A stretch of DNA of 64,000 bases from an uncultured Desulfovibrionales bacterium (GCA_964614055.1 CAZTKE010000001.1:6349-70348), one strand, 5' to 3'; numbered from the stretch's first letter, positions 29,908 to 40,345 are shown. The notes: generated by a model not told the origin, from the letters alone. Program-made: numbers and translations.

Positions 29908-30579
29908 TCAGGACACTCCCTTTAATGCCGCCTTCAGGCCGCCATCAATCAAATCTATGCGCACATAACCGCCATTTCCGGCCATTCCCGGATTTATAAC
30001 CGGACAATTACCGATCCAGTCCTCGGCAACAGCCTCGTGGATATGACCGGTCACGCACACATCCGGCTGAACCACCTCGATAAATTCCCGCACGGAGGGA
30101 CTGCCCACATGCGTTCCCGAACCCAGGGCGTCGGTAAGCGTATCCAGGGGCGGAGTATGAGTAACAAAGATCAATTTTCCCGCCAGCTCCCGGCATTTAT
30201 CCTGAGCAGCCTTGAGCCAGGAGGAAAGCTCTTTTTCCTCCACTTCCAGGGGAGTGCCAAAGGGAGTGGGCGTGGAATACCCGACCGCGAACAGATAAAC
30301 ATCCCTGTCCAGGGAAACAAGCCTGTTGTGTATGTCCAGGCCTTCTTCCTCCAGCCACTTCCCGGCAGCCGGGGTATCCATGTTCCCCACCTGGGCCAGG
30401 ACGCGGGAATTTTTTCCCCGGATGCGGTCGACTATGCGTTCTGCATCTTCCCGGCCGCCGTGGTTGGTCAAATCCCCGGAGACAATTATTCCCTCAGCAC
30501 CGGGCAATTCCTTATTGCTTTCCACAAAGGACAAATCCGTATGAATATCGCCAAGAGCGATCCAGTATTTATCAGCCAT
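29908..30579 (-). CDS. Calcineurin-like metallophosphoesterase
   Basis: ALGDIH, SGDLTNHG, THTPP and GHIHE metal-ligand blocks. Confidence 0.8.
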   Translation of the reverse strand: MADKYWIALGDIHTDLSFVESNKELPGAEGIIVSGDLTNHGGREDAERIVDRIRGKNSRVLAQVGNMDTPAAGKWLEEEGLDIHNRLVSLDRDVYLFAVGYSTPTPFGTPLEVEEKELSSWLKAAQDKCRELAGKLIFVTHTPPLDTLTDALGSGTHVGSPSVREFIEVVQPDVCVTGHIHEAVAEDWIGNCPVINPGMAGNGGYVRIDLIDGGLKAALKGVS

Positions 30580-30667: not shown

Positions 30668-32986
30668 TCACGATTTTTCCGCTTTATCCGCCTTGAATAC
30701 CTGCACTCCCTGCGGGGAATCAACAAGCCTGAAGCCGCGCTCAAGCAGCTTATCCCTTATATCGTCCGCCCGGGAGAAATCCTTTTTTTGCCTGGCCTCT
30801 TCCCTCCGGGCGATCATTTCCCGGATCTCGCTGCTCAGACGGGAGAAAACAAAGGGCACATTCCCCCAATCCAGAATGCACAGGACCTTATCCATTTCCT
30901 TCAGGGCATTTATGAGCACCTTTTGTTCTTCGGCGCTCATCCCGCTTTGATCCACCAGCTTGTGTACGGTCCGGGTCAACCGGAAAAGGACCGGCCAAAA
31001 GCCCTGCAGGCTCAAGTCCTCTTCCATGCTTTTTTTTAACTCTGATTTGAGATCAAAAACCGCCTGATCCACCTCCGATCTGAGCCCGCCTTCTTTTTCC
31101 GGGCGCAAGGCGTTTAATTTGACCAGCATGTCCTGGACCCGCTTCCAGTTGCGATGCCACATATGCAGGTTCTTTTCCCCGGAAACCAGTGGCTTGTGAT
31201 AGGAAGTGGACAAAAACCACATGCGCAGGGGCGGAAAGCCGCCGCAGTCAACGGCCAGATCGCGCAGATCCCGTTTTTCCTCGGTTCCGGATTCGTCCAC
31301 CACCGGATAGGAAACCGCCCAGGCCTGGGCCTGGATGCGCAAAGCGGAACTCCAGATGCTGCGCAGGTTGTCCAGATGAGGGAATATATGCGGCTGCCCG
31401 CCCAGGACCAAAAGTATCTGCCCCAAATGATCAGCCGCGGCAGCAGCCTGCTGCAAATACCAGGTGGGACGGACGTTGCCCCATTTGGTCTTGACCACGC
31501 TGCCTTCCTTTAAATCCTGGAGAGTGGCCCGCTTGAGCAGGGTGAAATCCCGGGGATTACCCTTGTCATAGCTTTCCAGATCCACTGTCTTACCGGAAAG
31601 CAACTTTTCCGGATCCATCCGGGCCAGGCCGCCATATTCATTATCCCGGCGCACATCGTAATAAACCGAGCGCAAACGCTCATAAGCAAGCCCCTTGGAA
31701 AGGAGACGGTCGCACAGGTCAACGGCCGTATCCATGCACCCGGCATCAGAGACGAAGCGGACCTGTTCATGCACCCCGAGATCCGCGGCCAGGGCATAGA
31801 CTTCCTCAAGTTTTTGGCGACTGAACGCATCCCTGGAGAGCCCCATGCCGCGTCCGGCCTGAAGAGTGCGGTCGTCAAAATCAGCCATGCCCAAAACAGC
31901 GGCCGGCCGCAAACCCTTTTGGTCCAGATACCTCTTCAGCACATCCAGAAAAATTATCCTGCGCCATGCTTCCGGGCAGCCGATATTGTCCAGACTGGGG
32001 CCGAAGCTGAAAAGACCGGCTTCCCGGGACTCGGATTCCAGATAAACCTTCTTGCGGGAGGCGATGTCCCACAGGGCCACGCCCTGCCGACTGGGTTCGA
32101 CAAAAAGTGAAGTACTCAGATAGCGATCTCCCCCGTCCGGAAAGATGGTCACGATTTTTCCGTTTTCAATCTCCCCGGCCAGTTTCAGGGCCCCGGCCAG
32201 AGCGGCGCCGGAACTCATACCCACAAAAATGCCTTCCTCCCGGGCCAATCTGCGGCATGTCTCAAATGCATCTTCATCCTGGACATGGATGATCCCGTCC
32301 AGAAGCTTTTTGTCATATATGCCCGGAGGATAGGATTCGTGCATATTTTTAAGCCCCTGGATCTTGTGTCCGGCATAAGGCTCGATCCCGATTACCTTGA
32401 TCCGGGGATTGTATTCCTTGAGCCGCTTGTTCAGGCCCATCACGGTTCCGGTAGTCCCCATGCATGCCAGGACGTGGGTAACCTCTCCTGCGGTATCCTC
32501 CCATACCTCCGGAGCTGTTCCTTGATAATGGGCATCAATGCTGGCCGGGTTGTTGTATTGATCCATAAGCACATATTTTTCCGCCTCCTCCCGCCCCAGC
32601 CGGTAGGCCTCCTCTATGGCCCCGTCCGTACCCAGATGACCGGGTGTAAGCTCTATTTCCGCGCCGTAAGCCCGCATTATCCGCTTTCTTTCCTCGGAGG
32701 CGGAAGAAGGCATAATCAGCTTTAGTTTGTATCCCTTAATCGCACAAACCATGGCCAGCCCGATACCGGTATTGCCGGAAGTGGCCTCCACCACGGTCTT
32801 GTCCGGGGTAAGCTCCCCGGACCTCTCCGCGGCCTCGATCATGCTCAGGGCCACCCGATCCTTGATGGAACCACCGGGGTTATTCATCTCCAGCTTGGCC
32901 TGTATGGATACGTCCACGTACGGATTAAGCCGGGAAATATGTACCAAGGGGGTTTTACCTATAAGTTCGATTACGCTGTCTTTCAA
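30668..32986 (-). CDS. Fusion protein: cysteine synthase (CysK/CysM-type PLP enzyme) plus CysRS-like domain with degenerate catalytic motifs
   Basis: aa 1-295 have GGSIKDR (PLP Lys), TSGNTG and GMSSGA. aa ~303-772 are collinear with class I cysteinyl-tRNA synthetase (ADFDDRTL, LLSKGLAYE, NPRDFTLLKR, GGQPHIFPHLDN, LRMWFLSTSYHKPL, C-terminal ADDIRDKLLERGFRLVDSPQG). HIGH, KMSKS and most Zn ligands are replaced. Confidence 0.8.
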   Translation of the reverse strand: MKDSVIELIGKTPLVHISRLNPYVDVSIQAKLEMNNPGGSIKDRVALSMIEAAERSGELTPDKTVVEATSGNTGIGLAMVCAIKGYKLKLIMPSSASEERKRIMRAYGAEIELTPGHLGTDGAIEEAYRLGREEAEKYVLMDQYNNPASIDAHYQGTAPEVWEDTAGEVTHVLACMGTTGTVMGLNKRLKEYNPRIKVIGIEPYAGHKIQGLKNMHESYPPGIYDKKLLDGIIHVQDEDAFETCRRLAREEGIFVGMSSGAALAGALKLAGEIENGKIVTIFPDGGDRYLSTSLFVEPSRQGVALWDIASRKKVYLESESREAGLFSFGPSLDNIGCPEAWRRIIFLDVLKRYLDQKGLRPAAVLGMADFDDRTLQAGRGMGLSRDAFSRQKLEEVYALAADLGVHEQVRFVSDAGCMDTAVDLCDRLLSKGLAYERLRSVYYDVRRDNEYGGLARMDPEKLLSGKTVDLESYDKGNPRDFTLLKRATLQDLKEGSVVKTKWGNVRPTWYLQQAAAAADHLGQILLVLGGQPHIFPHLDNLRSIWSSALRIQAQAWAVSYPVVDESGTEEKRDLRDLAVDCGGFPPLRMWFLSTSYHKPLVSGEKNLHMWHRNWKRVQDMLVKLNALRPEKEGGLRSEVDQAVFDLKSELKKSMEEDLSLQGFWPVLFRLTRTVHKLVDQSGMSAEEQKVLINALKEMDKVLCILDWGNVPFVFSRLSSEIREMIARREEARQKKDFSRADDIRDKLLERGFRLVDSPQGVQVFKADKAEKS

Positions 32987-33251
32987 AATGCTGTCCTTTT
33001 AGGTCCAAAAATCAATTGAAAACAAGCCAATATAAAAGTACAAAAACAGAATATAAGTTAACCCATTTTTTGAGCACAGGCAATTAAGGACAAGCCGGGT
33101 CCTATAAATGAGGTTAACACGACAGGTATAAAAACAAGGTCGGGAGATAAGGCTGCAGTATCCAATCGAAATGCGCGGATAATACACCGGCACGAGCCAA
33201 TCCGCTTTTTGGATTAATCCCCAAAACACGACTGCACACAGAGATAAAGAC

Positions 33252-34394
33252 ATGACCCAGCAGGCACACCAACCGTTCCCGGAAAAGATCCCGGGGGAAG
33301 TAAGCGAAAAAGATGAAAAATTCTTTCTTTTTGCCACCTCGGAAGATCTGACCCCGGAACAGATCAAAAGGATCAAGGCCCCGACCAGGATAGTCCCGGA
33401 GCAAAGAGCGGCCCTGGCCACTCACTGGCATCCGGAATTCGTGCCTGTTGACCTTGCAGTAGAACGGATGCAGGCCATGTTCCCCAATCTTGAAGAGGCA
33501 CTGATCATTCCCACTCAGCACAATGAACTTCTGAGTTACAGGGGATACAGCGGTGTGGAGGTGGATTGCTACTCCAAGGGATTCAACCAGAAAGTGCAGC
33601 TTCTGCTGCATTTTGAAAAAGACCGGGTGGAGAATGCTTCCCGGCTCAGGTCCATTCTGGAGCATACCCGGAAATACAGGGCCACCCAGCTATTTGAATT
33701 CATCCGGGCCGTAAACGATGAAAACGGAAACAAAGTAGAAAAGGCGGTGCGGGAAACCGGGGCCGGAAAAGAAATAGTGAATTTTACCCGAATTTATGTG
33801 CGAAAAATTGAAAGACTAATCCAAAAACACCACTCTTCCCTGCCTGCAAACAGCCTGAAGAACAAATTGCTGCGCAATTTCTTCCATCATCTGCGTCAGG
33901 ATTATCCGGATCCGTTCATAGACAGGGTGCAGATATTTCTGAAAACAATCAAAAACATGGTCAAGGCGGATTTCAATCTGGACTATTTTTATCGCACCTC
34001 GGAGATAATAGAAGAGGCCCGCCTGCACGGAGGAGGAATCGTGATCCCCCATCCGGAACAATTCTGGCCCATCCTGCTTGCAGAATACGACGTGGACGGC
34101 TACGAGGTATGGAACCCCCAATCACAGAGATATACAGAATTCCTCATATCCGTGGTCAATCGCAAAAATAAAGAAAAAAAACACCTGCAAAAGGAAATCC
34201 TCATCTTTATGGGAGACGACACGCACATGGGGGAAAAGGCAATGCATGCCGCCTATCAGGACAAGAAAAAAGCGGAACGGGAAATCGGCTGCCAACCGGC
34301 CTGGGAGGATCCGAATATCAAAAGGAAACTTGACTCCGCCGGGATAACCCGGACAAGTGTAATTGAGAGGTACAAACAGCGTTTAGCCGGCTGA
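33252..34394 (+). CDS. Divergent PHP-like metal-dependent phosphoesterase (first gene of the GAK-type cassette)
   Basis: ATHWHPEF (HxH), GGIVIPHPEQ and IFMGDDTHMGE follow the order of PHP-domain ligand motifs, with a long helical insert between them. Confidence 0.45.
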   Translation: MTQQAHQPFPEKIPGEVSEKDEKFFLFATSEDLTPEQIKRIKAPTRIVPEQRAALATHWHPEFVPVDLAVERMQAMFPNLEEALIIPTQHNELLSYRGYSGVEVDCYSKGFNQKVQLLLHFEKDRVENASRLRSILEHTRKYRATQLFEFIRAVNDENGNKVEKAVRETGAGKEIVNFTRIYVRKIERLIQKHHSSLPANSLKNKLLRNFFHHLRQDYPDPFIDRVQIFLKTIKNMVKADFNLDYFYRTSEIIEEARLHGGGIVIPHPEQFWPILLAEYDVDGYEVWNPQSQRYTEFLISVVNRKNKEKKHLQKEILIFMGDDTHMGEKAMHAAYQDKKKAEREIGCQPAWEDPNIKRKLDSAGITRTSVIERYKQRLAG

Positions 34395-34441
34395 GCAGAC
34401 GGCTAGAACTGTCCAAAAAAATTTACAAGGCTGGAGAATGC

Positions 34442-34720
34442 ATGTCCAAGAAACAAAATTTCTTTCACGAATCCATTCAGGACACACAGTCAATAAAAAA
34501 ATTCCTGGAGGCCCTGCAAGAAGGACTGGAAAAAGGCAGCCTGCATCTCTCCGGGCCATCGGAAAACATTGACCTTTCCCCGCAAGGTCTTTTGAATTTT
34601 ACTGTAACCGCCCGGAAAAAGGAGGATTCCAACAAAATATCCCTTGAAATCGAATGGAAAGACTCCAAGGACAGCGAACTCACATCCACCGCTCCAGTAC
34701 AGATAACCTCATCCGGATAA
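34442..34720 (+). CDS. Amphi-Trp domain mini-protein (92 aa)
   Basis: GGAG RBS 6 nt upstream. Alternating polar/non-polar strand KISLEIEWKDSKD around the single Trp. No enzymatic motif. The family name is from memory. Confidence 0.6.
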   Translation: MSKKQNFFHESIQDTQSIKKFLEALQEGLEKGSLHLSGPSENIDLSPQGLLNFTVTARKKEDSNKISLEIEWKDSKDSELTSTAPVQITSSG

Positions 34721-34729
34721 AAACAATTC

Positions 34730-36376
34730 ATGATCTCTTTTGAAACAATACAGGAAAACTTTTATTTCATGGTCCTGGAAGTAAAAAATCAGGTATACAA
34801 CACCTTTGATTTCCTGAACTCCCCGGAACCGGAGCTGTACGAGAAAATAATCTCCAAGGACGACTACATAGACAACCTCAAAAATGTAATTGAAAGCAAA
34901 TGCTTTTCCAGGATTCTGCCCTCTTCCGGACTAATAAAAAAAGAAATCAATAAAATCCGGGCAATTCATACCATAACCGTGAATCTGGAAAGGATCGGGG
35001 ACTTTTGCGTGAATGTAGCCGAGCAGATGAAATACCTGAGCGACTACAAGGTCCTGTACGGATTTGATTATGATGAAATGCTCACGGAAATAGTTCGGGG
35101 GCTTTCCAATATAAATGCGGCCATGCGCAAAAACGACCTGTCCCTTACCCTGGATATCTGTCGCACGGAAAACAACCTGGACAAGCTATACAAAATCCAC
35201 CTCGACCGCATCCTGGAAGAACTTTCCGAAAACCGGACCCATCCCGGGGATTATGTCACCATACTTTTCATGATCCGGTACCTGGAACGCATAGGCGACT
35301 CCCTCTTGAACATTGGGGAAGCCATCCTATTCAATATCATTGGAGAAAAGATCAAAATCAACCAGTTCCAGGCCCTGCAGCAGAATCTGGATCAGAGCGG
35401 ATTTGACGCTCCCATATCCGAGGTGGACTTCCAGGGGATATGGGGAACAAGGTCCGGATGCCGGATAGGAAGAATTGAGGACAAGCAGCATCCGGACAGC
35501 GCCCTGGGAAGCATTTTCAAGGAGGGGTCCAGGGAAAAAATATCCAGGGAAAGGGAAAACCTTAATCTCTGGCAGGAAAAATTCCCCGGGCTAGTGCCCA
35601 GGGTATTCAGTTATCAGCAAAGTAAATCCGAAGACAAGGCCTCCATGCTGATTGAATTCCTCCCCGGGTGCACTCTGGACGAGGAAATACTCACCTCTGA
35701 GCTGGACACGCTAAAAATAGCCTATGCCGGTCTTGAAAAAAAACTGACCCGGATATGGGAGGGCACGCTCAGAAAGGAAAAAGCTCCCACAAACTACGTG
35801 GAACAATTTCGAGCCAGGATGGATTCGGTCCTCCAGGTCCATCCGGGATTCAGCCGCAGGGAGCAAACCATACAAAGCGTCCGGATAAGATCACTGGAAA
35901 ACCTTCTAAAAAAAGCGGCCCACCTGGAGACAAGGCACCCCTCCCCTGTAAGTGTTTTCATTCACGGGGATTTCAATATAAACAATATTGTCTATGAACA
36001 CCGGGAGAATACCGTGCATTTCATAGACCTGCACCGTTCCCGGCAATATGATTACATCCAGGATGTATCCGTGTTTCTGATCTCCAATTTCCGGATGCCA
36101 ATATTTGATTCCAGTCTGCGGCGGCGCCTTAACTGGGTGACTAGAAAATTTTATTCCTTTGCCCGGGCATTCGCGGAAAAACACGGGGATACCACGTTTG
36201 ATGCCAGATTGTCCCTGGCCCTGGCCAGATCGTTTTATACCTCCACCCGTTTTGAACTCAACCATTTATTCGCAAAAGAGATGTTCCTTCGGGCTCAATA
36301 TCTTCTGGATCAACTATTGGCTCCGGAGCGGAAATGGTCCGAATTCAGGATGCCGCAAGAAATCCTTTTTTACTGA
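34730..36376 (+). CDS. PhoU-domain / APH-type phosphotransferase (kinase) fusion protein
   Basis: Two PhoU-like helices are present (ERIGDFCVNVAEQM, ERIGDSLLNIGEAI). The C-terminal half has a kinase core (FIHGDFNINNIV ... VHFIDLHRS) as in aminoglycoside/choline kinases. Confidence 0.7.
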   Translation: MISFETIQENFYFMVLEVKNQVYNTFDFLNSPEPELYEKIISKDDYIDNLKNVIESKCFSRILPSSGLIKKEINKIRAIHTITVNLERIGDFCVNVAEQMKYLSDYKVLYGFDYDEMLTEIVRGLSNINAAMRKNDLSLTLDICRTENNLDKLYKIHLDRILEELSENRTHPGDYVTILFMIRYLERIGDSLLNIGEAILFNIIGEKIKINQFQALQQNLDQSGFDAPISEVDFQGIWGTRSGCRIGRIEDKQHPDSALGSIFKEGSREKISRERENLNLWQEKFPGLVPRVFSYQQSKSEDKASMLIEFLPGCTLDEEILTSELDTLKIAYAGLEKKLTRIWEGTLRKEKAPTNYVEQFRARMDSVLQVHPGFSRREQTIQSVRIRSLENLLKKAAHLETRHPSPVSVFIHGDFNINNIVYEHRENTVHFIDLHRSRQYDYIQDVSVFLISNFRMPIFDSSLRRRLNWVTRKFYSFARAFAEKHGDTTFDARLSLALARSFYTSTRFELNHLFAKEMFLRAQYLLDQLLAPERKWSEFRMPQEILFY

Positions 36377-36395
36377 AAATAAAAAGAGGCAATAA

Positions 36396-37271
36396 ATGCG
36401 CATAGGAGTTGTCGGGACCATCGGCGGATGGTCCTCGGAAAAACTGGCGGACGCGGTGCAAGACCTCACCGGATACCGGCTTTTAGTGGATATGGATCGG
36501 TTTTCCCTTGATCTCGATTCTAAAAAGGCCTTTTTTAAGGACATGGACCTGAGCCGGCTGGATGCCCTGATCATAAAGAAAGTCGGATCCAAATACTCCT
36601 CCAGTCTGCTGGATCGTCTGGAGTGCCTGCGTTTTTTGCACGAATCCGGCCTGCCCGTATTTTCCGCGCCGGGCAGCATAATGCGGGTTCTAAACAGACT
36701 CAGCTGCACGACAACCATGCGCCTGGCCGGCATTCCCATGCCGGAAACTACTGTTACCGAGGACATAGACACAGCCCTAAAGGCGGTGGAAAAATACGGC
36801 CAGGCCGTATTTAAGCCCCTGTATTCCACCAAGGCCCGGGGTATGGCTTTGATACAGGCGGGGCGGGGAGCCCGGGAAAAAATAGCGGATTTTAACAGAA
36901 ATAATTCGATAATGTATATCCAGAAAAAGATTGAACTAAACGGCAGGGATCTGGGACTGGCTTTTCTGGGCGGCAAATACCTGGCCACCTACTCCCGCTT
37001 AAAACAGAATTCCTCCTGGAACACGAGCACGGTAAACGGCGGCAAATACGCCTTCTGCGAACCAAGCCGGGAGAGCATTGACGTGGCGGAAAAAGCCCAG
37101 TCGCTGTTTTCCCTGGATTTTACATGTGTGGACGTTGCACAGACCGCAAGCGGCCCGGTTGTATTTGAAGTCTCCGCCTTCGGTGGTTTCAAGGGAATTC
37201 AGGAAGCCTGCGGACTGGACGCGGCAAAATTGTATGTCCAGTATGTACTAAAAAAACTGCACTCGGGCTGA
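36396..37271 (+). CDS. RimK-like ATP-grasp ligase
   Basis: 291 aa. Layout and blocks (VFKPLYSTKARGM, MYIQKKIE, DFTCVDVA..GPVVFEVSAFGGFKG) resemble the RimK/GshB-type ATP-grasp. Confidence 0.7.
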   Translation: MRIGVVGTIGGWSSEKLADAVQDLTGYRLLVDMDRFSLDLDSKKAFFKDMDLSRLDALIIKKVGSKYSSSLLDRLECLRFLHESGLPVFSAPGSIMRVLNRLSCTTTMRLAGIPMPETTVTEDIDTALKAVEKYGQAVFKPLYSTKARGMALIQAGRGAREKIADFNRNNSIMYIQKKIELNGRDLGLAFLGGKYLATYSRLKQNSSWNTSTVNGGKYAFCEPSRESIDVAEKAQSLFSLDFTCVDVAQTASGPVVFEVSAFGGFKGIQEACGLDAAKLYVQYVLKKLHSG

Positions 37272-37276
37272 ATCTT

Positions 37277-38473
37277 ATGTGCGCAAATATATGGATGAAC
37301 CGGGAAATCCGGATCCCGGACGGATATAAACTGGCCCGGTTCAAGGGCTCGCCCGAGCTTGGCCCGAAAATCCTTTTTTTCAGCGGCGGTTCCGCACTGA
37401 AAGGCGTCAGCCAAAAAATCACCGCCTACACCCACAACTCCGTACACATAATTACTCCCTTTGATTCCGGCGGGAGTTCTGCGGTTCTGCGCAAGGCATT
37501 CGATATGCCCGCTGTCGGGGATATCCGCAACAGACTTTTGGCTCTGGCGGACAAAACCATGACCGGAAACCCGGAAATTTTCGCTCTGCTTGGGCACAGA
37601 CTGCCGGCCGATGAAAACCAGGAAGAACTCAGGCGGACACTCCGGGATATGGTCCGGGGCAAACACGGTTTAGTTCGTTCCGTTCCCGAGCCAATGCAGA
37701 AAATAATCCGGCATTATCTGGAAATTTTCTCTGAAAACATGCCTGCAGATTTTGACCTGCGCGGGGCAAGCATCGGCAATCTCGTCCTTACCGGGGGATA
37801 CCTGGAAAACAAAAGGAACCCGGATTCGATCATCTATATCTTTTCCCAATTGGTGAAAGCAAAAGGCACGGTTCGCCCGGTGGTTAACCGCAGCCTGCAC
37901 CTGGGAGCGCGCTTGGAAGACGGGGAAATCGTTAGCGGACAACACAGAATAACCGGCAAGCAAACCCCCAAAATCAGTCAGCAGATAAAGGACATATTCC
38001 TGGTGCGGGATCTGAACAGCAAACAGCCTGTAAAAGCCGATATCCGAGAAGAAATAGCCCTGGAAATAAGCCGGGCGGATCTGATTTGTTATCCGATGGG
38101 CAGTTTTTTCACCAGCATCCTGGCTAATCTGCTCCCCTCAGGAGTAGGCCGGGCCATAAAAAATGCGCGCTGCCCCAAAATATTTATCCCCAATACCTTT
38201 TTTGACCCGGAATGCTATGCGCTGCCCCCGGCAAATCAGATAGATCGCCTTTTGGAGATTTTGGGCCGCGACTGCCCCGGGTCCGGCCAAAAAACCGATT
38301 TTTTGGATTTAATTCTTCTAAACCGGGACTATTCCCTGTACCCGGGCGGGGTAGACAGGGAAAAGATCTCCGGCTTGGGATCAAGAATCCTGGAATACGA
38401 TCTGGTCACCGAACAATCTAAACCGGGGATTGATCCGGAAAGACTCTGCGAAGTACTGCTTTCCCTGTGCTAA
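37277..38473 (+). CDS. CofD/YvcK-like (2-phospho-L-lactate transferase family) protein
   Basis: FFSGGSALKG, FDSGGSSAVLRK, VGDIRNRLLAL, IGNLVLTG and YPMGSFFTSILANLLP match the CofD/YvcK signature blocks in order. Confidence 0.75.
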   Translation: MCANIWMNREIRIPDGYKLARFKGSPELGPKILFFSGGSALKGVSQKITAYTHNSVHIITPFDSGGSSAVLRKAFDMPAVGDIRNRLLALADKTMTGNPEIFALLGHRLPADENQEELRRTLRDMVRGKHGLVRSVPEPMQKIIRHYLEIFSENMPADFDLRGASIGNLVLTGGYLENKRNPDSIIYIFSQLVKAKGTVRPVVNRSLHLGARLEDGEIVSGQHRITGKQTPKISQQIKDIFLVRDLNSKQPVKADIREEIALEISRADLICYPMGSFFTSILANLLPSGVGRAIKNARCPKIFIPNTFFDPECYALPPANQIDRLLEILGRDCPGSGQKTDFLDLILLNRDYSLYPGGVDREKISGLGSRILEYDLVTEQSKPGIDPERLCEVLLSLC

Positions 38474-38538: not shown

Positions 38539-39420
38539 ATGCGGGACCAGAAAAAGGCTTATATATTTGGACTTCTCACCGTTTTAATCTGGTCAACGGT
38601 GGCCTCGGCCTTCAAGATAAGCCTGAGGTACCTGGATGTGGTCCAGCTGCTCTTCTACTCCAGCCTGACCTCCCTATTCTGTCTTTTTATCCTGGCTGTC
38701 TTCTTTCACGGCCCTCGCTTTACCCGCCTCTTTTCCCGCGAGGACATTATGCGCTCGGCCTTCCTGGGACTTCTCAATCCCTTTATGTATTATCTGGTCC
38801 TGTTCAAGGCCTACGACCTTTTGCCCGCCCAAGAGGCCCAGCCGCTCAACTATACCTGGGGCATAACCATCACCATTCTTGCAGTCCCTCTTCTGGGCCA
38901 GAAAATAACCGGGAAAAGATTCGCGGCCATTGTAATCAGCTACCTGGGTGTTGTTGTCATTTCCACGCACGGCACTCCATGGGACATGAATTTTTCTGAC
39001 CCATGGGGCGTTTTTTTGGCCCTTTTCAGTACCATAATCTGGGCTCTTTACTGGATCGCCAATACCAGGGACAACCTGCCGGCCATTTTGCGCCTGCTTT
39101 TGAATTTTCTGGCGGGAACTGTCTATCTGGGCATTCTTTTACCTTTTGTCTCCACTCCGCTTATTTTCTCCTTCAAGGGACTTGCCGGGGCAATTTACGT
39201 GGGACTTTTTGAGATGGGCATCACTTTTGTCTTCTGGCTGCAGGCCCTTAAATATTCGAAAACCACGGCCCAGGTGAGCAATCTTATTTATCTCTCCCCG
39301 TTTCTGTCCCTTGTATTCATCCACTACCTGGTCGGGGAAAAAATCCTGCCCTCCACCCTAGTCGGCCTGGTTTTGATCCTGTCCGGGCTGATCATGCAAA
39401 ACAGGGTGAAAAACACTTAA
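38539..39420 (+). CDS. EamA/DMT family permease
   Basis: 10-TM protein with duplicated EamA halves. It lies 65 nt downstream of the cassette on the same strand. Confidence 0.8.
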   Translation: MRDQKKAYIFGLLTVLIWSTVASAFKISLRYLDVVQLLFYSSLTSLFCLFILAVFFHGPRFTRLFSREDIMRSAFLGLLNPFMYYLVLFKAYDLLPAQEAQPLNYTWGITITILAVPLLGQKITGKRFAAIVISYLGVVVISTHGTPWDMNFSDPWGVFLALFSTIIWALYWIANTRDNLPAILRLLLNFLAGTVYLGILLPFVSTPLIFSFKGLAGAIYVGLFEMGITFVFWLQALKYSKTTAQVSNLIYLSPFLSLVFIHYLVGEKILPSTLVGLVLILSGLIMQNRVKNT

Positions 39421-39553: not shown

Positions 39554-40345
39554 ATGGACGCGAATGTAGTGGAAAGACTGATAAAAGCCTTGGAAAACGT
39601 GGCCCGGGGAACATACTCAAACGACGTAATGGAATTCACCAAACCCGATTATGCTCCGAGCGTCCGCCGCGTTGCCGAGGCCATGGGCATGATGATGGTC
39701 AAGGTGGAAGCCAGGGAAATGCGCCTGGAGGAACTGGTGGCCGACCTGCGGCAGGCCAACCAGCAATTGCGGGAAAACATCCTGGACACGGTATCCACCA
39801 TGGCCAACGCCCTGGAGGCCAGGGACGAATACACCCGGGGACACTCGCACCGGGTCTCCAATTACTGCAACCGGCTGGCCTGCAGGATAAATCTGCCCGC
39901 ACAGGAAGTAACCAATGTCAAACTGGGAGGGATGCTCCACGACATCGGCAAAATAGGATTCAGCGACTCTTTATTCGCGAACGGGGAAACAAGTCCGGAC
40001 GAGAAGATGCGGGCAGAAATCGTCCAGCACCCCCTTATCGGGGAAAGGATACTCAAGGACCTGCATTTCCTGGGACCGATACTCAAATATGTCCGTTATC
40101 ACCACGAACGGGTGGACGGACAGGGCTATCCTTACGGACTTTATGGTCCGCAAATACCGCTGGGAGCGAAGATCATAAGCGTGGCCGACTGCTTTGACGC
40201 CATTACTTCCAACAGACCGTATCAGAATAAGCGCTCACCAAGCGAGGCGTTCAAAACCATGCGCGGTCTGGCCGGATACGCCCTGGAAAAAGACCTGGTC
40301 CACGAATTCATCGTTGAAATCCAGGATAATGGCATGGAGGACTGA
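39554..40345 (+). CDS. HD-GYP domain c-di-GMP phosphodiesterase-type protein
   Basis: HSHRV, GGMLHDIGKIG and HHERVDGQGYPYGL. Confidence 0.88.
   Translation: MDANVVERLIKALENVARGTYSNDVMEFTKPDYAPSVRRVAEAMGMMMVKVEAREMRLEELVADLRQANQQLRENILDTVSTMANALEARDEYTRGHSHRVSNYCNRLACRINLPAQEVTNVKLGGMLHDIGKIGFSDSLFANGETSPDEKMRAEIVQHPLIGERILKDLHFLGPILKYVRYHHERVDGQGYPYGLYGPQIPLGAKIISVADCFDAITSNRPYQNKRSPSEAFKTMRGLAGYALEKDLVHEFIVEIQDNGMED

Follow-up and report, generated by a model that had tools for sequence, protein, structure and literature searches.

A stretch of 64,000 nucleotides (nt) from the genome of an uncultured Desulfovibrionales bacterium (GCA_964614055.1 CAZTKE010000001.1:6349-70348), hereafter referred to as the window, carries a cassette of five genes coding for a PHP-like protein (p1), an amphi-Trp mini-protein (p2), a PhoU-kinase (p3), an ATP-grasp enzyme (p4), and a CofD-like protein (p5). 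Analysis of the protein families and of related loci in other genomes showed that the cassette is real, strongly conserved among sulfate-reducing bacteria, and a variant of a named yet uncharacterised system, the GAK system, which has long been listed in protein-family databases without an assigned function. We tentatively favour its interpretation as a phospho-modification module that is linked to phosphate status and has the amphi-Trp protein at its centre, a reading that is held with less than even confidence and is weighed below against its rivals.

The assignment to the GAK system is based on profile searches with all five proteins. Searches with hidden Markov models (HMMs), as suggested by an earlier reading of this DNA made without databases (the sequence-only reading), placed p2, p4, and p5 in GAK families and p3 among PhoU and APH proteins, leaving p1 unmatched. 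The scores were far above the cut-offs of the respective NCBIfam models for the amphi-Trp protein (TIGR04354, 67.6 bits, cut-off 31; in addition PF20068, 34.7 bits, cut-off 27), the ATP-grasp enzyme (TIGR04356, 441.7 bits, cut-off 300), and the CofD-like protein (TIGR04357, 516.5 bits, cut-off 340), the latter two matching over their full length. Thus, three of the five families defining the GAK system are present, whereas HprK-related kinase B (HprK_rel_B, TIGR04355) and the XXXCH protein (TIGR04358) are absent from the window. A tblastn search with a verified HprK_rel_B member (539 bits) was empty within the 64 kb, so that the gene may lie elsewhere in the genome, and neither an XXXCH nor a second amphi-Trp gene was matched in the window. 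As a consequence, the locus is a reduced GAK variant that retains the genes for p1, amphi-Trp, the PhoU-kinase, the grasp, and the CofD-like protein. The recognition of a GAK-type cassette in the sequence-only reading is borne out by these scores; its equation with the canonical GAK set did not hold, as the sole kinase of the neighbourhood with an NCBIfam model is HprK_rel_B and not the PhoU-kinase. The cassette itself is already known in that the NCBI annotation pipeline would name three of its genes. A literature search found no papers on the GAK system, on HprK-related kinase B, or on the combination of a CofD-like protein with an ATP-grasp enzyme, and nothing relevant on PhoU-domain/aminoglycoside-phosphotransferase proteins in Desulfovibrio; no experimental work was found, in agreement with the earlier statement that an experimental function of GAK is not known. 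Likewise, no description was found of the further components and the minimal core of the cassette, of the recurrent loss of its HprK-type kinase, of how p1 folds, or of the association with the phosphate (Pho) regulon, as presented here.

Extension of the analysis toward other genomes was performed on neighbourhoods anchored on p1, taken from Desulfonema ishimotonii and Desulfovibrio mangrovi, from the metagenome contigs of the window itself, and from 80 loci in metagenomes. The same gene order recurs in ~85 related loci of several Desulfobacterota orders, in a Coatesbacteria metagenome-assembled genome (MAG), and partly in an alphaproteobacterium, which places the arrangement far beyond chance and confirms the conservation of the neighbourhood on which the earlier reading had built. 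The dominant order is XXXCH, p1, amphi-Trp, PhoU-kinase, grasp, HprK_rel_B, and CofD-like, often followed by a second amphi-Trp gene. Considering the 41 loci with the cassette clear of contig ends, p1 is accompanied by amphi-Trp in 39, by the PhoU-kinase and the grasp in 35 each, by HprK_rel_B in 32, and by the CofD-like gene and the upstream XXXCH gene in at least 26 each. Loci anchored on amphi-Trp instead (Coatesbacteria MAG; Thiovibrio frasassiensis) showed the same order as the p1-anchored ones, and the PhoU-kinase was present in every amphi-Trp-anchored locus examined. The tightest junctions are found between grasp and HprK_rel_B (-2 nt), between HprK_rel_B and CofD-like (13 nt), and, as the tightest one involving the amphi-Trp gene, between p2 and the PhoU-kinase (median 7.5 nt), which suggests that the cassette is composed of two sub-modules.

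According to the p1 tree, three or four clades at the least have lost HprK_rel_B, and the window groups with loci devoid of this kinase (L009, L034, and L048). The HprK-type kinase is dispensable. The minimal core consists of p1, amphi-Trp, and PhoU-kinase, usually joined by the grasp and the CofD-like gene. Compared with the GAK system of NCBIfam/TIGRFAMs, the three families of the window appear in canonical order and orthologous full cassettes hold all five; in contrast, the window is devoid of HprK_rel_B and XXXCH, and p1 and the PhoU-APH kinase are syntenic almost everywhere yet without a GAK model. The conserved unit in turn exceeds the five curated families by two components, the kinase fused to PhoU and an isolated family of PHP fold.

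Several loci deviate from the dominant order. L062 and L085 are rearranged (amphi-Trp, kinase, p1, grasp, HprK, and in part CofD), and in L051 an XXXCH-grasp-HprK set precedes another, partial set of amphi-Trp, XXXCH, p1, grasp, and CofD by ~8 kb. The alphaproteobacterial locus of Candidatus Terasakiella magnetica (L088:343-7215) combines, in this order, PhoU-kinase, grasp_GAK, HprK_rel_B, a fusion of a SixA-like phosphatase with NUDIX, another protein of the His_Phos_1 family, an ApaH-like metallophosphatase, and amphi-Trp; neither a CofD-like nor a p1 gene was found on this short contig, and p1 possibly lies beyond its end. In a Desulfohalobiaceae MAG (L001:4589-5785), a lone GAK-type CofD-like gene (478 bits) resides beside an RsbW/RsbV-like pair and a HAMP-PP2C phosphatase, the other GAK genes being absent from this 9.7-kb contig. 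Full cassettes close with a second amphi-Trp gene (L015:16273-16620, L052:16362-16922, and ~12 more loci), whose product is devoid of the N-terminal F-x-x-x-S-x-Q-D and carries a Pro/Ala/Lys-rich low-complexity tail, often ending in AKKK. The XXXCH protein (L002:9135-9683, L003:9434-9994, and 27 others) has a seemingly amphi-Trp-like N-terminal half, with a helix and K-rich strands, and a helical C-terminal domain ending in an invariant C-H dipeptide. Counting its N-terminal half, full cassettes thus encode up to three proteins of the amphi-Trp type.

A link to the phosphate regulon, overlooked in the sequence-only reading, emerged from a census of the genes flanking the cassette. For this census, loci were merged into lineages by a p1 identity threshold of 85%, only lineages with 3 kb or more of flanking coding sequence were counted, and a range of 10 kb was considered. 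A Pho-regulon gene (pstSCAB, phoU, phoB/R, or PhoH2) was found in the range of the cassette in 11 of the 29 independent lineages. Clustering of the flanking open reading frames (ORFs) revealed PstB, PhoU, and a PIN-PhoH2-type ATPase as the most recurrent families, with PstA/C and a PhoR/PnpS-type sensor recurring as well. In Thiovibrio, the genes are arranged as pstSCAB-phoU-phoB-XXXCH-p1-amphiTrp-kinase-grasp-HprK-CofD, in Desulfonema the cassette follows pstSCAB-phoU, and in L034 and L048, the closest relatives of the window without HprK_rel_B, it starts 77-118 nt past phoU on the same strand. These Pho-regulon neighbours and the PhoU domains of p3 jointly argue for a system wired to phosphate sensing. 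The phosphate tie offers a testable condition, namely phosphate limitation, and cultured carriers are at hand with Desulfovibrio mangrovi for the reduced cassette and with Desulfonema ishimotonii and Thiovibrio frasassiensis for the full one.

The PhoU-kinase p3 carries two stretches matching PF01895 (88.5 bits) followed by a domain matching PF01636 (42 bits, cut-off 23.2) and PF02958 (37.7 bits). Its motifs include two LERIGD PhoU helices, HGDFNINN, and IDLHRS, and invariant across 53 orthologues are the E/D-xxx-D motifs of PhoU, K264, H412-G-D414-x-N416..N419, and D433. Both PhoU repeats with their E/D-xxx-D motifs are therefore recognizable at domain level, while the score of the full PhoU model TIGR02135 stays below its cut-off (92.9 vs 130.25 bits). 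The second half has the predicted characteristics of the APH/EcKL fold, judged from PF01636 and from the invariant HGDxxxxN catalytic loop and Mg-binding Asp. The relatives of p3 in PDB sequence searches are PhoU proteins only, and together with the Pfam matches this substantiates the early description of p3 as PhoU plus APH kinase. With PhoU of the Pst system, p3 shares an end-to-end alignment of its N-terminal 210 residues with both metal-binding motifs kept, and true phoU genes are frequent neighbours of the cassette; it differs in the fusion to a kinase and in its score under the PhoU equivalog cut-off.

Categorization of p4 as an enzyme of the RimK type and of p5 as CofD/YvcK type, both already proposed from their motifs, was confirmed by model scores and solved relatives. 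For p4, all next-best NCBIfam models remained below their cut-offs (MptN 154.4 < 350, rimK_fam 106.2 < 143.4, LysX 83.1 < 275.6), and the CofF model was likewise detected; on family level p4 consequently matches neither RimK nor LysX, with only the RimK domain PF08443 passing. Its solved relatives are exclusively LysX, ArgX, and RimK, enzymes of which LysX and RimK act on protein C-termini, and the ATP-grasp residues K140, D246, and E258 are conserved. The p5 protein matches PF01933 with 131 bits and thereby belongs to the CofD superfamily on domain level, and its score for the YvcK subfamily is below the cut-off (TIGR01826, 118.8 < 196). Its closest solved proteins are the YvcK-type UPF0052 structures 2ppv, 2o2z, and 2hzb, not CofD. 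The blocks FFSGG, DSGGSS, GD-R-R, GN, and PmGSF were located, and the nucleotide-binding blocks are all invariant in 36 orthologues. CofD makes phosphodiesters from donors activated as nucleoside diphosphates (NDP), and YvcK/GlmR binds UDP-N-acetylglucosamine. Since the catalytic or ligand-binding residues of p3, p4, and p5 are invariant in 36-53 orthologues despite only ~39-62% identity with the window proteins, all three are probably active enzymes.

In contrast to the other components, p1 was without a match in Pfam, NCBIfam, PADLOC, and PDB sequence searches. Its 1,621 homologues share ~55-60% identity across Desulfobacterota orders, every one being labelled hypothetical, and the family profile matched just 105 of 1.84 billion cluster representatives, showing p1 to be a tight, isolated family. 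His, Asp, and Glu abound among its invariant residues (HWHPE, PTQHN, VEVDC, PHPEQ, YDVDG-E-WNP, MGDD-H), and the PHP-type motifs quoted in the sequence-only reading were located at H58-W-H60, H267-P268, and G321-D-D-T-H325. The AlphaFold2 model is of high confidence (predicted local distance difference test, pLDDT, 91; predicted TM-score 0.89), with a helical insertion spanning approximately residues 123-258. A Foldseek search with this model returned three significant matches only, i.e., RNase AM (9etk) and BAD_1165 (3e0f/3o0f), with E-values of 2e-4 to 1e-3, a probability of 1.0, and TM-scores of 0.35-0.48. All three neighbours are TrpH/YciV-type PHP phosphoesterases likewise bearing a helical insertion. 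The model thus appears to adopt the PHP barrel, though at modest TM-scores, and places the invariant H58/H60, E103, H120, H267, and D323/H325 in the order of PHP ligands at predicted strand ends. On sequence level, PHP membership was not supported: neither PF02811 nor a known member was matched, the PDB profile search was empty, and an hhalign comparison of p1 with E. coli RNase AM was not significant (probability 0.2%), its alignment pairing VIPHPEQ...DVDGYEV with VLAHPGR...GDAMEV. The original PHP-like call is hence supported at fold level only, by the structural model. Compared with the TrpH/YciV-type enzymes (RNase AM; the pAp phosphatase BAD_1165), p1 has the barrel, the helical insertion, and the order of HxH, HP, and DxH in common, and differs by the lack of detectable sequence homology, TM-scores below 0.5, and a far larger helical insertion. 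Among PHP enzymes are phosphatases acting on proteins (CpsB, YwqE) and others acting on nucleotides. In four loci, among them L049:4012-6453 (-), an 813-residue fusion of an N-terminal PHP-like domain with a GT4 glycosyltransferase is encoded within 10 kb of the cassette.

The amphi-Trp protein is the non-enzymatic member of the set. In its AlphaFold2 model (pLDDT 85), a helix (residues 15-31) lies against a sheet of four strands (34-71), and residues 72-92 form a disordered tail; no fold neighbour was found in the PDB. Among the orthologues, F7, S11, and W72 are invariant, D14 is nearly so, and the C-terminus follows the motif hydrophobic-x-I-x-[S/A/T]. The last residue is Ser in 30 of 63 sequences and Glu in four, with A, T, G, N, P, K, R, and D as further variants. 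Three specific roles for this terminus were considered. HprK-type kinases act on small proteins and peptides (Ser46 of HPr; the C-terminal Ser of lasso peptides), and by analogy to the lasso-peptide kinases the terminal Ser might serve as phospho-acceptor; this was unsupported, the residue being variable and without co-variation with HprK_rel_B. The tail as substrate of the grasp is a weakened candidate, with tails being non-acidic and present in loci without a grasp, and graspetide-like cross-linking was rejected, as conservation is lacking between W72 and the terminal motif. The one mention of amphi-Trp in the literature searched is a proteome table in which an amphi-Trp domain protein of Dissulfuribacter thermophilus, DITHS69_2464, ranks in the top 20 by abundance (PMC13490349).

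As to target, chemistry of each step, and direction of regulation, we infer the following scheme for the phosphate-linked module. The PhoU domains of p3 would couple or gate the fused kinase by the phosphate-sensing status of Pst/PhoU/PhoR, and the kinase would act on or with the amphi-Trp protein encoded directly upstream. The RimK/LysX-like p4 and the YvcK/CofD-like p5 might furnish this same target with an amino-acyl group and a phospho-linked one, and p1 would hydrolyse a phosphoester, be it to undo the modification or to process an intermediate. The write/erase pathway on a small protein or metabolite that the sequence-only reading proposed would be compatible with the data. A protein-centred reading is favoured because amphi-Trp folds into a small domain whose flexible tail ends in a conserved motif, because its gene is almost fused to that of the kinase, and because the solved relatives of p4 all ligate onto protein C-termini. 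The phosphatases located between HprK_rel_B and amphi-Trp in the alphaproteobacterial locus L088 (SixA-like+NUDIX, His_Phos_1, and ApaH-like) further contribute to a phosphoesterase theme. Among known systems, the cassette resembles the LysW/LysX/LysZ amino-group carrier-protein pathway and the modification of ribosomal protein S6 by RimK in placing the gene of a small protein beside a kinase and an ATP-grasp of RimK/LysX type; the solved relatives of p4 and the flexible C-terminal tail of amphi-Trp fit this likeness. The differences are that amphi-Trp has another fold without Zn ribbon and ends in S, A, T, or G instead of Glu, that the p3 kinase is of APH type and not an amino-acid kinase, and that p4 scores below the LysX and RimK cut-offs. 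If amphi-Trp is indeed a modified carrier, the system would bring to light novel chemistry on proteins and a novel output of phosphate signalling in bacteria.

A number of observations weigh against this scheme. Modification of the amphi-Trp protein is putative, and co-transcription of the five genes as one operon is presumed from their spacing only. The C-terminus of amphi-Trp is not acidic, unlike that of the substrates of RimK and LysX, whose acceptor is a C-terminal Glu; its variable last residue does not co-vary with the presence of HprK_rel_B; and the tail is kept in loci without a grasp (L023, L041, L070) and missing in the grasp-bearing L009. Invariant S11 and nearly invariant D14 may simply form a helix N-capping box. 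The top-scoring characterised relative of p4 by HMM is MptN, a small-molecule ligase, and the PHP assignment of p1 rests on moderate TM-scores with sequence support being nil. On the regulatory side, a simple Pho-box-like pattern matched none of 66 orthologous upstream regions, and pst genes were not found near the cassette in the window itself. In consequence of the non-acidic C-terminus, the variable last residue, and the retention of the tail without a grasp, two rivals remain serious, a small-molecule pathway and a signalling switch.

The first of them, which we regard as somewhat unlikely, assumes that kinase, CofD-like protein, and ATP-grasp build a phosphodiester-linked glutamylated metabolite, comparable to the phospholactyl-glutamyl tail that F420 carries or to the glutamate capping tetrahydrosarcinapterin, with p1 trimming phosphate and amphi-Trp serving as scaffold, chaperone, or regulator. 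It draws on the pairing of a p5 from the CofD superfamily with an MptN/CofF-like p4 (MptN being the top characterised relative with 154 bits), a combination that is shared with the biosynthesis of F420 and methanopterin side chains by CofD/CofF/MptN and suggests phosphodiester formation followed by glutamylation. Kinases of the APH/EcKL/choline-kinase type mostly phosphorylate hydroxyls of small molecules, the amphi-Trp tail neither is acidic nor co-varies with enzyme content, and the NUDIX domain of the alphaproteobacterial variant hints at NDP-X chemistry. However, p5 groups closer to YvcK than to CofD, and p4 and p5 score far below the equivalog cut-offs of the side-chain enzymes. The F420 context (CofC, CofE, CofG/H) was found neither in the cassette nor among the recurrent flanking families, leaving the pathway devoid of an enzyme that would make the donor, such as a CofC-like nucleotidyl-transferase, within the cassette or recurrently around it, and a conserved transporter is equally absent among the recurrent flanking families. 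A non-enzymatic mini-protein kept in nearly all loci and tightly coupled to the kinase gene is unexpected here, and up to three amphi-Trp-type proteins per full cassette are hard to fit to a purely metabolic pathway.

The second rival, a pure signalling switch, appears rather unlikely to us. It regards amphi-Trp as an HPr/Crh-like phospho-switch that receives its phosphate from the PhoU-kinase (and, in loci that have it, from HprK_rel_B) and loses it through p1, whereas the CofD-like protein would be a UDP-sugar-binding regulator of YvcK/GlmR type and the grasp would work on a different target. In Bacillus subtilis, yvcK is located in an operon with crh, whose product is HPr-like and a substrate of HprK. 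Congruently, the solved relatives of p5 are YvcK-type, the lone CofD-like gene of L001 neighbours an RsbW/RsbV/PP2C partner-switching module, and both the regulatory nature of PhoU domains and the Pho neighbourhood are compatible with a switch. Yet the grasp is retained in 35 of the 41 loci and is coupled to HprK_rel_B and CofD-like at the junctions of -2 and 13 nt, suggesting joint chemistry rather than independent roles, and the amphi-Trp fold is without similarity to HPr. Compared with YvcK/GlmR of the Firmicutes, its closest solved relative, p5 has the nucleotide-sugar-binding blocks in common and differs by an identity of only ~25-30%, a score under the subfamily cut-off, and another gene context.

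A more specific version of the protein-centred reading, considered improbable, combines both chemistries in a phosphate-controlled carrier-protein system that would build a phosphodiester-linked, amino-acylated group resembling an F420 tail on amphi-Trp. The kinase and the CofD-like protein would install the phospho-linked unit, the ATP-grasp would add glutamate, and p1 would remove it. If true, this would represent a new reversible protein modification or carrier-protein biosynthetic logic tied to the Pho regulon. Finally, a role in anti-phage defence or another mobile conflict system is highly unlikely, for which an uncharacterised multi-enzyme cassette with a kinase, nucleotide-binding proteins, and a NUDIX domain in one variant as well as a weak Pfam match to TCAD9 (E 0.0034) might speak, whereas PADLOC gave no match for any of six proteins, p1 matched no plasmid, p5 found only remote YvcK-like matches in phage records, the genes nearby have housekeeping functions (rpoBC, pst, nuo, aroC), the composition resembles that of the flanks, and p1 is strongly conserved across orders.

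Features of the locus, in the coordinates of the whole 64-kb window
Feature	Position	Strand	Description
p1	33252-34394	+	380 aa; isolated unnamed family, PHP-like predicted fold with long helical insertion; candidate metal-dependent phosphoesterase
p2	34442-34720	+	92-aa amphi-Trp mini-protein; candidate substrate or partner
p3	34730-36376	+	548 aa; two PhoU repeats (~1-215) and APH/EcKL-type kinase domain (~240-548)
p4	36396-37271	+	291-aa GAK-system ATP-grasp ligase; RimK/LysX/MptN relatives
p5	37277-38473	+	398-aa GAK-system CofD-like protein, YvcK/UPF0052 branch
EamA/DMT permease	38539-39420	+	PF00892 132.7 bits; 65 nt after p5; outside conserved cassette
Divergent intergenic region	32987-33251	.	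265 nt; presumed operon promoter region, upstream of p1

On the level of the DNA, the ORF listing confirmed five same-strand ORFs with intergenic spacers of 47, 9, 19, and 5 nt (p1-p2, p2-p3, p3-p4, p4-p5), as originally read, and the motifs quoted at that time were all present in the translations and invariant in orthologues. An alternative start of p5 at 37295 (392 aa) in the gene calls of the Joint Genome Institute would extend the last spacer from 5 to 23 nt; a clear ribosome binding site (RBS) was found at neither start, while the p2 gene is preceded by a good one (GGAG). The region upstream of p1 is the sole sizeable non-coding gap adjoining the cassette and thereby the presumable promoter region, in which sigma-70-like and terminator-like sites did not exceed shuffled expectation and an Rfam search was without match. 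Base composition and GC content at third codon positions of the cassette equal those of the flanks, thus giving no sign of recent transfer.

The adjacent EamA/DMT permease had been proposed as an exporter belonging to the cassette. This was not supported, as the adjacency was seen in the window's own contigs L004 and L006 only and the family is absent from the recurrent flanking families. Downstream of the permease gene, an HD-GYP-type (HD_5/HD) protein, seen in the window's own contigs only, is encoded at 39554-40345 (+), and past it a TrkA-domain channel gene lies on the other strand; neither of them is conserved with the cassette. On the other side, two further phosphoesterase genes without conserved association to the cassette, a Metallophos gene (29908-30579, -) and next upstream of it one of the Exo_endo_phos family, are located just upstream of a gene (30668-32986, -) that is divergent from the cassette. 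The latter codes for a 772-residue fusion of a PALP (cysteine-synthase-like) and a class-I cysteinyl-tRNA-synthetase-like domain (PF00291 and PF01406), found next to the cassette in the window's own contigs only.

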